From Escherichia coli (lineage in GTDB: Bacteria > Pseudomonadota > Gammaproteobacteria > Enterobacterales > Enterobacteriaceae): a DNA stretch of 64,000 nucleotides. The notes below the pieces were generated by a model. It was not told where the DNA came from. It made no database searches and saw nothing but the letters and a program-made list of their open reading frames with translations. Below are positions 42,694-48,970 of this stretch, in pieces. The stretch's first letter is position 1. Every line of letters begins with the position of its first letter. Made by a program: the position numbers and the translations under genes. The stretch lies in assembly GCF_016026235.1 (NCBI RefSeq), contig NZ_CP065613.1; one strand, 5' to 3'.

Positions 42694-42700
42694 TTATTGT

Positions 42701-42722
42701 CAGGCTCTGATCACAGAGCCTG
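42701..42722. terminator. hairpin between convergent marB and the glucosidase gene, possible bidirectional terminator
   Basis: CAGGCTCTG-atca-CAGAGCCTG perfect 9-bp stem; no strong T-tract on either side. Confidence 0.4.
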
Positions 42723-42749
42723 ACATCTCCGTAATATCTTCCTGAAGTC

Positions 42750-44195
42750 TCAAATATTTTCGCCATTGTTGGCGATGAGATCCCGATACCAGTAAAACGA
42801 CGCTTTACGTATCCGTTCCAGCGTTCCCTTCCCTTCGTTGTCTTTATCGACATAAATCATTCCGTAGCGCTTTTTCATTTCCCCTGTTCCAGCAGAAACC
42901 AGGTCAATGCAGCCCCACGGGGTGTAGCCAATTAAGTCAACACCATCTTCGACTACGGCTTTTTTCATTTCCCGAATATGGGAAGCAAAGTAATCAATGC
43001 GATAGTGATCGTTTACCGTGCCGTCAGCTTGTCTCTGGTCAACTGCACCAAATCCATTTTCGACAATAAACAGCGGCAACTGGAAATGATCCCAGAACCA
43101 GTTGAGTGAATAACGTAGCCCTGCCGGATCAATTTGCCATCCCCATTCGGATGTATCGATATAAGGGTTGCTGACCAAATCTCGTGGTTCAACATAATCC
43201 AGTTGCGGGTTATCGGGCGAAAATTGTGTCGTAAAAGACATGTAGTAGCTAAAGCCGATAAAGTCGACACAACCACTGGCAAGAATCGCGTTATCTTCTG
43301 GTGTGATATCGAGGTTGAATCCTTTCCTGGCAAAGTAATTCAGCATATGTTGCGGATAATATCCACGAGTATGAACATCAGTAAACCAGTAACGACGATG
43401 CATTGCTTTCGTGGCCATCATCATATCGTTGGGTGCACACGTCAGAGGATAGATGGGACACATGGCGATCATACAGCCAATGTTAAATTCAGGATTGATC
43501 GATTTTCCAGTCTGTACCGCCAGGGCACTGGCAACTAACTCGTAATGTACCGCCTGGTACATTATTTGTTCGCGCTCATTGATATCTTCCTCTGGCGAAT
43601 ACAAGATACCGGAATTAGTAAATGGACACAGGCTTTCGCTGAAATTCACCTGATTATTGATTTCGTTAAACGTCATCCAGTACTTTACTTTTTCTTTATA
43701 GCGCGTGAAGACCGTTGATGCGAAGCGGATAAAAAAGTCGATCAGTTTACGGTTTCGCCAGCCACCATATTTTGTCACCAGATGATAAGGCATCTCAAAA
43801 TGTGAAAGCGTCACCACAGGTTCCATTCCCTGCTTAAGGCATTCATCGAACAGATCATCATAAAATTGTAAACCCTCTTCATTCGGCTCCTGTTCGTCAC
43901 CTTGCGGAAAGATTCGTGTCCAGGCAATGGAAGTTCGAAAGCATTTGAATCCCATCTCGGCAAATAACTGAATATCTGTTTTATAGCGATGATAAAAATC
44001 AATTGCTTCATGATTGGGATAATTAAGCCCGTCGATAACGCCTTCTGTCACTTCACGCGGCACCCCGTGAGCGCCAGCAGTCATCACATCAGCGATACTG
44101 ATGCCTTTTCCTCCTTCATTCCAGCCACCTTCCAACTGATGCGCGGCTACCGCGCCGCCCCATAAAAAACCTTTTTTAAATCCTGACATACACAA
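42750..44195 (-). CDS. GH1-family 6-phospho-beta-glucosidase
   Basis: 481-aa ORF with GH1 acid/base motif TFNEIN and nucleophile motif IVENG. Confidence 0.85.
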
Positions 44196-44213
44196 CTCCT
44201 TAACTAAAATAGA

Positions 44214-45887
44214 TTACCACCAGACTTCCGCCTGGATGCCGGCCATAAACTCGTCTTTGCTGTTCTCATTAAACTTAAAATTCGATAATTCGTTATCCAG
44301 AATATTGATATACGTTCCATAGAAGCGAATTTCTGGTCGTGAACCTAAAATGCTTTCACCCACTTTCAATGCATGCCAGAGTGTCGTTTTATAAGCCGAT
44401 TCATTTAGTGTTACACCCTGCTGAGTTTTGTTCTGTTGCTTAAACCAGCCTAATTCAAGCCCCGTCTGATTCCATGTATTCCAGATCCAGGCCGGTCTTA
44501 TTACAGTGCGAATACTGTCAAAATCACTATGAGCACCACTTTCATAACTATAAACATCTTCGCCGTGAGAATAGACAAGCGCGTTAGCCATAATAATATT
44601 GTCAGTAAGATACATCTCGCCCTGAGAGATTAAACGCCAGGCGATCCCATTGGTATGATCACCATAGTAATAGCGACCATGCGCCATCGTATTACTGGCA
44701 TCTGAGAAACTGGCAAAACTGCTGGCATAGGAATTATTGGCAACCTGTAACGTAAATTCATTAAACGTATCGCGTTGCAGGTTTTGCCGTAAAACAGAAG
44801 TCAGCATCCAGCTATCTTTCATTTCAAAATAACTGTTGTCATTTTCGTTATCTTGTTGTTGATCCGTTTTATTAGGTGCGGAATATTTAGCCATTAATGA
44901 TAATGTCGCATCATCCCATAACGGGATATTGCGATAACGAACATCCACAGAATTGGTATTCATCTGGCTGGTACGCGAAAAATCACGAGAGTAAACATCG
45001 ACATCATCACGGCTTAAGGACATATCAAACAGCCCTACACCAAGTGCCCAGTTTTCAATCCCCACACCCGCGGCGACATCCGTGGTTAAGGTTTTCCAGT
45101 CCAGCATCTGGATCTCATATTGCGGGAGTTTATGTTTGCCGACCCAGAAGTCTGCCTCTGGTGCGAAGGGTAAAAAACCTCGCGTTGTCAGGTAAATATC
45201 GCTGAACTGCATGATATTTTCATTGGCACTGTCACCAAACCTGGCATCGTTATACTGCTCACCCACGTTGCCATCATAGGTAACGACCGCATTTGCCGTT
45301 TTACCGTCCTGATTATAAACACGCTGATTTAAGGTCAGGTCAAACCAACCGCTCATCTCATTACCAAAACGTCCCAGAGAACCCGCTGCATAAGTTTGTG
45401 GTGAGCCGTGATTACCAGTACCCCAGCCTGAGCGGAAGTACCCCTGATAGCTGAACCCAATATCATCCTTTATATATTTACTGATATCTTTCAGGGTCAC
45501 GCTTTCGATAGTGGTTTTGTCGCCTTTACTTTCAATAACGGCAACTTGCTGCGATCCATTTATAGTATGCGCTGCGGTAAACGAGTTCTGTTCACCGTTT
45601 TCATTTTTGATGTTATCAGCGACGGGAGATGTCGCTGATATTTCAGCAAGCGAGGCTGATTTATATTTGTTTTCCGTGATGCTTTTTTGTAAGGTCGAAA
45701 GTCGGGATTTATATACTCCCAGTTCATTCTGTGTTGCTTTCAGCTCTTGTTTATTTTGCGACAATTCATTTTCAAGCAATTCAAGGCGCTGCTCTATGGT
45801 TAATTTTGTTGCCATCGCGTTCAATGGAAACAATGCTGTAATAATAGAAAAAGACAAAAGGCTGACGTTAAGCGTCTTTATATTCAT
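44214..45887 (-). CDS. LamB-like carbohydrate-specific outer-membrane porin with N-terminal coiled-coil extension
   Basis: 557 aa; signal peptide, heptad-like [42 protein letters not shown], beta-rich body ending in aromatic ...AEVWW. Confidence 0.7.
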
Positions 45888-47604: not shown

Positions 47605-47717
47605 TTTTTATACCTGTTGTTTTGGATATTTATACATCCCAATAAAGCATGTATGCCATATCCATTTTATGATGTGTGAAAAGTTAGTTCAGGTAATAGT
47701 TTAATAATATTAGATTC

Positions 47718-48029
47718 TTACTCTTGCAGTAGTTTCATCGCAAATTCAAGAACTGCCTGTCCGTTCATGGTGCCGTAGTCTTTCATCTCGATAACGGCTA
47801 CAGGCATTTTCCCCTGTGCAACGGCTTCAATCTCTGGTTTCTGAAAGCGAACTTGCGGGCCAAGTAAAACAACGTCAACTTCGTTATTTTTAATTTTCCC
47901 TTTAGCCTCTGCAATCGCCAATGCGGAAATATTAACTTCAAGTGAAATAGCGTTAGCATGATCAATCATACGTTTAACCAGCATACTGGTTGACATGCCC
48001 GCAGCGCAAACTAACAATATTTTTTTCAT
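47718..48029 (-). CDS. PTS lactose/cellobiose-family EIIB
   Basis: 103-aa ORF with N-terminal phospho-cysteine loop MKKILLVCAAGMSTS. Confidence 0.85.
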   Translation of the reverse strand: MKKILLVCAAGMSTSMLVKRMIDHANAISLEVNISALAIAEAKGKIKNNEVDVVLLGPQVRFQKPEIEAVAQGKMPVAVIEMKDYGTMNGQAVLEFAMKLLQE

Positions 48030-48227
48030 ATTTTCCCTTACTGGTATATAACAGATTACATTGTTTAAATATCATATCCCGCAGTAGCTATACGTCCTGG
48101 TACATTGATCACAGTAATACAGTGATAAAGTTGTTCAACATCAGGGTGATTATTAAACGACTCGGCCATACGATAAACCAATCAGGACTCAACTCCTTGT
48201 TTTCAATGGCTCTTAAAAGGTGCAAAA

Positions 48228-48926
48228 GTGATTTTTCAAAAGATTGCCCGCTTACTTAAATCCGAAATCAATGGCAATTCATGGCATGTTGGTGATTTGT
48301 TGCCGTCAGAAGCGGAACTCGCTGTTCGTTATAATGTTTCGCGTAATACCCTGCGTAAGGCATTATCCTTGCTGGAAGGCGAAGGAATTATTCACAGAAA
48401 GCATGGTTCAGGAACATACATTCAAAAAAAGAATTTTGTTGCACACATTGATCACATGAACAGTTTCAGTGAAATTGCGCATAAAAGCGGCAAAGAGGCA
48501 GGGAGTCAGATTATGAAATTTGAAGTGCAGGATGCTTCACCCACTATTGCGACTGAGCTGAATTTAGTGACTGGTGAGCAGGTTTATTACATAAAGAGAC
48601 TGCGATTCATTGAGGATAATGCAGCACAATTAGAAGAAACGTGGATGTCAGTAGCACGTTTTCCTGATTTAACCGTGTCACATATGCAAAAATCCAAATT
48701 TTCATATATTGAGAATGAATGCGGGATCAAAATCATTGGCACCTTTGAAACTTTCTCCCCTACTTTTCCTACCCCAGAAATCGCCAGTATTTTACGGATC
48801 AGCCCACGGGATCCCATACTTAAAATTCAGACCCAGGCTGTGGACAGTAACTCTATTCCGCTGGATTATTCGTTACTTTACAGCAATATTTTCGAGTTCC
48901 AGGTAAAGTACTTTTTCCCGCGATAA
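48228..48926 (+). CDS. GntR/HutC-family transcriptional regulator (HTH plus UTRA effector domain)
   Basis: 232-aa ORF; N-terminal PSEAELAVRYNVSRNTLRKALSLLEGEGII HTH; divergent from the PTS operon. Confidence 0.8.
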   Translation: MIFQKIARLLKSEINGNSWHVGDLLPSEAELAVRYNVSRNTLRKALSLLEGEGIIHRKHGSGTYIQKKNFVAHIDHMNSFSEIAHKSGKEAGSQIMKFEVQDASPTIATELNLVTGEQVYYIKRLRFIEDNAAQLEETWMSVARFPDLTVSHMQKSKFSYIENECGIKIIGTFETFSPTFPTPEIASILRISPRDPILKIQTQAVDSNSIPLDYSLLYSNIFEFQVKYFFPR

Positions 48927-48970
48927 AAGCAGACGCACAGAGTGCTGACATCACATTCTGTGCGTATGGT

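Follow-up and report, generated by a model that had tools for sequence, protein, structure and literature searches.

A low-GC gene block between marB and eamA of Escherichia coli is very probably the β-glucoside operon bgc, a known variable locus

Between the core genes marB and eamA, a 64,000-nucleotide stretch of Escherichia coli DNA (contig NZ_CP065613.1 of assembly GCF_016026235.1, hereafter the window) carries a block of ~6.3 kb at window positions 42694–48970. We consider it very probable that this block is the bgc operon (bgcE-bgcF-bgcI-bgcH-bgcA with the divergent regulator gene bgcR), a phosphotransferase system (PTS) pathway for β-glucosides, and an ancient resident of its site under purifying selection. 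The operon was reportedly described in 2009 by Neelakanta, Sankar and Schnetz (Appl Environ Microbiol 75:2284) from the E. coli septicemia strain i484 and from uropathogenic E. coli (UPEC). A first-pass annotation of the window, made from the sequence alone, had singled the block out as an accessory island for the utilization of an unknown substrate. Its observation is confirmed and its functional interpretation supported, and the block is an ordinary, known variable locus of E. coli, already on record as bgc. Characterized in 2009, the operon carries little weight as a discovery and is useful as a clean annotation case: the Prokaryotic Genome Annotation Pipeline (PGAP) gives all six genes generic names, hiding a gene set that had already been named and whose substrates had been reported.

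Gene content of the block

Six intact open reading frames (ORFs) lie between marB and eamA, five on the minus strand and a regulator gene divergent on the plus strand; the RefSeq annotation of the collinear, nearly identical strain KSC64 has these six genes as well. Family matches bear out the set read in the first-pass annotation at this place, comprising PTS enzymes IIB, IIC and IIA (EIIB, EIIC and EIIA), a porin, a glycoside hydrolase family 1 (GH1) enzyme and a GntR regulator. The block had also been described as missing from K-12, and the same genes were indeed not found at this position in MG1655, where the marB-eamA spacer measures only 30 bp. The block and its immediate neighbors are arranged as follows (lengths in amino acids, aa).

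42475..42693, plus strand: marB, left flanking core gene, outside the module, annotated marB in KSC64 and K-12
42698..42725: hairpin between the convergent genes marB and bgcA, 12-bp stem and 4-nt loop
42750..44189, minus strand: bgcA, GH1 6-phospho-β-glucosidase, 479 aa (NF007154, PF00232)
44214..45887, minus strand: bgcH, LamB-family sugar porin, 557 aa (PF02264, PF11471)
45912..45939, minus strand: intra-operon hairpin in the bgcI-bgcH gap, 11-bp stem and T-rich tail (−20.2 kcal/mol, z −3.8)
45943..46254, minus strand: bgcI, PTS EIIA of the lactose/cellobiose family, 103 aa (PF02255, 110 bits)
46282..47604, minus strand: bgcF, PTS EIIC permease of the lactose/cellobiose family, 440 aa (TIGR00410, PF02378)
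47718..48029, minus strand: bgcE, PTS EIIB of the lactose/cellobiose family, 103 aa (PF02302, 69 bits)
48030..48227: divergent control region of bgcR and bgcEFIHA, 198 bp (from the sequence and a 16-taxon alignment)
48228..48926, plus strand: bgcR, regulator of the GntR/HutC subfamily, 232 aa, GTG start (PF00392, PF07702)
48933..48966: hairpin between the convergent genes bgcR and eamA, followed by a CUUUUAUC tail on the minus strand
48971..49870, minus strand: eamA, right flanking core gene (ORF; KSC64 annotation)

In a profile search, BgcA matched the NF007154 6-phospho-β-glucosidase model at 1037 bits (cut-off 624). It carries the catalytic glutamate pair (NEIN at residue 175, ENGFG at 377) and an S-x5-KKRYG phosphate motif at 432; its start is the ATG at 44189, as in RefSeq, with a TTG at 44195 also possible. 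Over its full length it shares 69% identity with the phospho-β-glucosidase of PDB entries 3pn8/4f66, to which it is nearer (806 bits) than to E. coli BglA (2xhy, 681 bits); 3pn8 is a Streptococcus mutans enzyme. BgcH is a coiled-coil-extended LamB-like porin, as the first-pass annotation had it. The LamB barrel occupies residues 147–557 (PF02264, 277 bits), preceded by an N-terminal segment of ~145 aa with a signal-peptide-like start, a heptad-rich stretch and a coiled coil of the ScrY type (PF11471 Sugarporin_N, residues 30–56, 31.5 bits against 25.7). A single-sequence search with BgcH gave no PDB match at E 1e-3 or better. The GH1 enzyme and the porin share one 90%-identity cluster of 14022 members, probably a clustering artifact caused by an ORF, fused or mis-called, that runs through the two genes.

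The three PTS components are separate proteins with recognizable active sites. BgcE carries its active-site Cys8 within a VCAAGMSTS motif and BgcI its active-site histidine in a VHAQDHLM motif at residue 75; their PF02302 and PF02255 matches exceed the gathering thresholds, and BgcF reaches 331.5 bits against TIGR00410 (cut-off 236). The regulator, on the plus strand opposite to the EIIB gene, combines a GntR winged helix-turn-helix (PF00392, residues 4–65) with a UTRA domain (PF07702, residues 87–218), which agrees with the GntR/HutC assignment made at first reading.

Identity with the bgc operon

The gene order EIIB, EIIC, EIIA, porin and GH1 enzyme with a divergent GntR gene matches the bgc architecture, and no structural difference from bgc as reported for i484 and UPEC was detected. 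A literature search on a cellobiose island at marB/eamA found nothing. PMC3585215 describes bgc as five genes, including IIB (BgcE), IIA, IIC and the phospho-β-glucosidase BgcA, with BgcR as a positive regulator, and reports that cellobiose, arbutin and salicin are used when temperatures are low; PMC4488073 groups bgc with chb, asc and bgl as β-glucoside operons of E. coli, called cryptic. Given these reports, the "unknown substrate" of the first-pass annotation is out of date. The abstract of the 2009 paper is said to name the porin BgcH as the fifth gene, to make expression dependent on CRP, to trace Bgc-positive mutants to a single promoter-up substitution, and to describe wild-type expression as insufficient for growth unless the promoter is mutated. 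That paper reportedly also equates bgc with c1955–c1960 of UPEC strain CFT073. In the UPEC strains CFT073 and NU14, the marB-eamA interval holds these six genes too, at ~97% identity to the window, which in comparison with this phylogroup B2 bgc holds a non-B2 allele. The six CFT073 genes at this place fit the published entry for c1955–c1960, six genes labeled "PTS system, cellobiose specific" and absent from K-12 and O157:H7 (PMC2831201).

Several points weigh against this identification or against parts of it. Among the listed members of the exact-sequence clusters the name Bgc was not found, only generic PGAP and UniRef names. The identification leans on architecture, on secondary citations and on the reported equation with c1955–c1960. 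Substrates, temperature dependence, dependence on CRP and activation by BgcR are taken from the literature, and the promoter geometry and operator proposed below are deduced from sequence. As to age, the contig of E. albertii, a species that carries the cluster beside marB, ends within bgcR, and the junction seen there is the one on the marB side only.

Proposed pathway and related systems

With gene families and motifs read from the block and the individual steps taken from established PTS and GH1 biochemistry, the pathway would run as follows. A β-glucoside would cross the outer membrane through the BgcH porin. The phosphoryl group would pass from phosphoenolpyruvate via enzyme I and HPr to the histidine of BgcI (EIIA) and on to Cys8 of BgcE (EIIB), while BgcF (EIIC) would translocate the sugar, phosphorylated at O6. 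BgcA would then split the 6-phospho-β-glucoside into glucose-6-phosphate and glucose or the aglycone. Transcription would start in the 198-bp divergent region, most likely at a class II-type CRP-dependent promoter, and BgcR would activate the operon, as reported in the literature. The outer-membrane-to-cytoplasm logic put forward in the first-pass annotation agrees with the gene content and families.

The block shares features with two other E. coli systems and differs from both. Like chb of K-12 (chbBCARFG), it encodes separate EIIB, EIIC and EIIA proteins of the same PTS family, but it combines them with a GH1 hydrolase, a GntR/HutC regulator and a porin gene; chb relies on ChbF, a GH4 hydrolase, with ChbG as its deacetylase and ChbR, of the AraC type, as its regulator, and is not known to include a porin gene. 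With bgl (bglGFBH) it has in common a β-glucoside PTS, a GH1 phospho-β-glucosidase and a LamB-family porin (BglH in bgl). Whereas bgl relies on a fused glucose-family EIIBCA (BglF) and on antitermination by BglG, the block has a three-protein PTS of the lactose/cellobiose family and a DNA-binding GntR regulator. Like bgc, the bgl operon is AT-rich, has been called cryptic and is variably present among phylogroups (PMC2646131).

The same set of GntR/HutC regulator, EIIB, EIIC and EIIA of the lactose/cellobiose family and GH1 enzyme recurs in the Firmicute operons bgu of Streptococcus pneumoniae (BguR) and gmu of Bacillus subtilis (GmuR), to which the enterobacterial version adds an acquired gene for an outer-membrane porin. 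According to PMC3585215, BguR resembles BgcR and the Bgu proteins resemble the Bgc proteins, and BgcR is also similar to GmuR, from the glucomannan operon of B. subtilis; the same text reports BgcR as an activator and BguR as a repressor.

Control region and transcript structure

We aligned the bgcR-bgcE intergenic regions of 16 Enterobacterales. The region has diverged mostly beyond recognition across these taxa, yet a CTGTGA motif (a TGTGA half-site) is invariant, and in the window a pattern search placed a CRP-like site, TGTGATCAATGTACCA, at 48098–48113. The CRP pattern is not enriched over the whole window, and the weight of the site comes only from its conservation across taxa. A −10-like TATGAT lies on the minus strand at 48071–48076 and would put the CRP center near −41.5, a class II geometry. 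The conserved inverted repeat GTT(C/T)A-N16-TGAAC at 48133–48158 could serve as the operator for BgcR or belong to the promoter of bgcR.

In generic scans for promoters and terminators, matches were no more numerous than in shuffled sequence; the intra-operon hairpin at 45912..45939 came up in them as a terminator-like match. This hairpin could damp expression of the porin and is a possible attenuator. No significant RNA structure was found in the 113-bp bgcE-bgcF gap (z −1.4). In comparison with the B2 allele, no part of the block has changed faster than the control region (94.4% identity, against 95–98% for the genes), with one cluster of substitutions directly beside the CRP-like site. Expression of bgc may differ between phylogroups, as far as these substitutions indicate.

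Alternative substrates

A PTS for chitobiose (N,N′-diacetylchitobiose) or another amino sugar, on the model of chb, was weighed as an alternative to the β-glucoside pathway, since the best NCBIfam match of the EIIA is the ChbA equivalog and the ChbC and ChbB models also match the EIIC and EIIB. These matches, however, remain well below the curated cut-offs (105.6 against 148 for EIIA, 275 against 760 for EIIC and 66 against 157 for EIIB), whereas the hydrolase exceeds its own cut-off as a GH1 6-phospho-β-glucosidase. None of the six genes encodes ChbF, ChbG or ChbR, and the regulator is of the GntR/HutC type. The probability of an amino-sugar system is close to negligible.

A less remote, though still unlikely, reading keeps the β-glucoside-type PTS and assigns it another natural substrate, a β-linked disaccharide or plant glycoside (for instance gentiobiose, laminaribiose, sophorose or mannobiose), so that cellobiose, arbutin and salicin would be side activities. 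Growth on the reported substrates reportedly needs a promoter-up mutation, and the presence of a porin of its own hints at substrates that are larger or scarce. In PMC3585215, that growth is reported only at low temperature, and the likeness of BgcR to the glucomannan regulator GmuR points the same way. The closest solved enzymes to BgcA, on the other side, are generic 6-phospho-β-glucosidases.

Age, origin and selection

The AT-richness noticed in the first-pass annotation holds on comparison with the flanks. The block has a GC content of 42.6%, while its 10-kb flanks have 48.6% and 47.8%, and it ranks lowest among 578 sliding windows of 6.3 kb; GC at third codon positions (GC3) is likewise low, at 0.38–0.46 against 0.53–0.58 in ydeA, marC, marR, marA, eamA and ydeE (marB, 0.47). 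Low-GC patches (0.36–0.42) also occur outside the block, at 38000–39500 (yneK) and at 53000–53750, approximately at the ydeI gene and the ydeI-ydeJ gap of KSC64.

Low GC and GC3, together with absence from K-12, the Firmicute-like sequence of BgcA and the presence of the same six-gene module at another site in Salmonella enterica subsp. diarizonae, could speak for a mobile genomic island recently inserted into a K-12-like marB-eamA spacer. Divergence argues otherwise. Between the window (phylogroup B1) and NU14 (B2), nucleotide identity is 95–98% in the block genes and 97–98.6% in the flanks, with synonymous divergence (dS) of 0.06–0.17 and 0.05–0.11, respectively. Against E. albertii, dS is 0.84–1.7 in the block and 0.46–1.08 in the flanks, and the left junction and its hairpin are as in the window. 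Synonymous divergence of the block thus equals that of the flanks at both distances. With a divergence that keeps pace with that of the flanks and with the low dN/dS given below, the block is very probably an old, selectively maintained resident.

Signs of mobility are also missing. None of the six ORFs of the block encodes an integrase, a transposase or an insertion sequence (IS) protein, no transfer RNA (tRNA) gene lies in the window between 36 and 56 kb, and no terminal direct or inverted repeats or attachment site were found at the block ends. A plasmid search returned five matches. Two are chromosome-sized records (4.8–4.9 Mb), two further records of 42 kb and 385 kb have consecutive accession numbers, are typed as non-mobilizable in PLSDB and are probably one assembly, and the fifth is a weak bgcA-like match in Enterococcus; plasmid carriage of the block was provisionally rejected. 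An 8-mer, CTGACATC, occurs near both block ends, with GACATCTC in the K-12 spacer (~0.02–0.03 chance matches estimated), and is not conserved in NU14. Nor would a deletion running simply from one copy to the other give the K-12 sequence; the CTGACATC/GACATCTC match is suggestive, a weak hint at most.

The two hairpins that had been read as bounding an island both exist, but they probably do not mark its ends. The left one (42698..42725) folds at −22.3 kcal/mol on the plus and −22.6 on the minus strand (z −6.3 and −6.7 against shuffled controls), is kept in NU14 and E. albertii and is likely a bidirectional terminator. The right one (48933..48966; −23.3 kcal/mol on the plus strand, z −5.2 against shuffled sequence, and −17.4 kcal/mol on the minus strand) is likely a terminator as well. 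Each sits between a convergent gene pair, for which reason terminators are the simplest explanation, and in K-12 a hairpin within the spacer itself fills this role (−14.8 kcal/mol).

Taken in the sense of a recent insertion, the "island" of the first-pass annotation does not stand, as the block has co-diverged with its flanks and adjoins marB in E. albertii too. We consider a recent arrival highly improbable and largely refuted; a horizontal origin is likely, but an ancient one. On these comparisons, the block has very probably been at marB/eamA since before the split of E. coli and E. albertii, with a foreign, low-GC origin, and the difference from K-12 is very probably a long-standing presence/absence polymorphism shuffled by recombination. 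The Firmicute-like BgcA and the unameliorated low GC point to an ancient transfer from low-GC bacteria, with the porin gene presumably added later. The locus illustrates that a block of low GC that K-12 lacks need not be a new arrival and can have resided in the species since ancient times.

The presumed resident also appears to be under constraint. The ratio of nonsynonymous to synonymous divergence (dN/dS) is 0–0.12 for all six genes, as in the housekeeping flanks, and BgcR (WP_000577184.1) is identical in KSC64, NU14 and CFT073, although bgcR differs from NU14 at dS 0.10 (dN 0). These values argue that the genes are maintained and not decaying. A functionless, "cryptic" cluster on its way to loss could still be suspected: wild-type bgc reportedly needs a promoter mutation before it is expressed strongly enough for growth, about half of the genomes have lost the block, and secondary deletions exist (e.g. 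NZ_AP027822.1). The label itself comes from PMC4488073. Decay is nevertheless very unlikely, given that, besides the low dN/dS, the six ORFs are intact, each exact sequence is found on 32 to at least 1000 contigs, and the operon is conserved across many genera of Enterobacterales.

Distribution and the empty allele

The distribution, which the first-pass annotation had proposed to check, was determined by megablast. Among 5426 complete E. coli genomes, 2493 carry the block in essentially full length, with identities of at least 99% in 1611 records and 95–99% in 954 records. With this share (46%), the operon extends far beyond the published "septicemic and uropathogenic" scope of bgc. A contiguous empty site was found in 2853 genomes with a 3.4-kb K-12 probe spanning marR to ydeE; a shorter probe failed to pick up the O157:H7 group owing to the strong divergence of its allele. 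Carriers include Shiga toxin-producing E. coli (STEC) O111:H8, porcine, bovine, dog and giant-panda isolates, the enterotoxigenic E. coli (ETEC) strain TW10722, SE11, CFT073, NU14 and a Nissle derivative, whereas K-12, sequence type 131 (ST131) and O157:H7 are among the non-carriers. The nearly even distribution may bear on niche differences, such as access to plant β-glucosides outside the host or at low temperature. One genome (locus L003, NZ_AP027822.1, 2501–2970) shows a secondary deletion, in which 139 bp of the marB-proximal block end are fused to an eamA whose C-terminal end is truncated; ydeE is followed there by an IS1 element.

Beyond E. coli, E. albertii carries the whole cluster beside marB. 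The same six-gene module occurs in S. enterica subsp. diarizonae between an nfsB-type nitroreductase gene and an esterase gene with pheP, and also in a Citrobacter. Kluyvera, Raoultella, Enterobacter, Cedecea, Ewingella and Erwinia have the same gene order or bgcA inverted upstream.

K-12 (phylogroup A) and ST131 (B2) share exactly the same 30-bp empty spacer, on flanks that follow their own phylogroups. In a comparison of seven sequences over 400 bp on each side of the junction, fixed differences between carriers and the K-12/ST131 empty alleles were confined to four positions in the first 10 bases at the 3′ (stop-codon) end of eamA, and there were none on the marB side. As a result, EamA ends in ...KVRG in carriers and in ...KVGS in these empty alleles (window 48971–48983), and the remainder of eamA follows phylogroup.

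O157:H7 (locus L084, NZ_CP133120.1, 1370–3900, compared with window 42475–51252) has its empty site on a diverged segment, with identities to the window of 92% in marB, 88% in eamA and 94% in ydeE, against 99% in marR. Its spacer is homologous to that of K-12 and ~80% identical, differing at 6 positions of 30 bp, and 343 records fall into the 90–95% identity band of the empty-site probe. From these identities, the segment looks like a recombinational import from a divergent, non-coli Escherichia lineage, centered on the junction. Both alleles look old, and since the empty spacer is shared across phylogroup backgrounds, recombination appears to have shuffled them. We tentatively raise the possibility that the bgc block and the 30-bp empty allele are both older than E. 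coli, forming a long-lived, possibly balanced polymorphism kept by homologous recombination. Such a picture would be a modest population-genetic footnote and not a new kind of system.

Other features of the window

Elsewhere in the window, a mobile element interrupts one gene and another appears to be disrupted. An IS110-family transposase gene (NF033542, 238 bits) at 14975–16171 on the plus strand interrupts an autotransporter gene of the ECSE_1600 family, whose remaining frames (13161–19917, minus strand) are in at least three pieces. At 4770–5675 there is an IS2 transposase gene (PRK09409, 728 bits), and the segment around it (~4400–5700) fails to align with the collinear KSC64, which has the fimbrial gene ydeQ there; on this alignment, a ydeQ-like gene appears to be disrupted.

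A match to the Rfam Hfq-binding RNA STnc560 (282 bits) at 51468–51681 on the minus strand overlaps the K-12 position of the small RNA MgrR, which in K-12 adjoins mgtS and mgtT. At the right end, ydfJ is truncated to 427 aa at 61022, where homology to KSC64 stops. The remaining 61023–64000 consist of prophage-type DNA, with a Pin-like invertase gene (62359–62949), an Rfam IS009 RNA (63081–63279) and, as read from the sequence, a possible tail-fiber-assembly gene (63047–63622, minus strand); this region resembles the Qin prophage junction of K-12.

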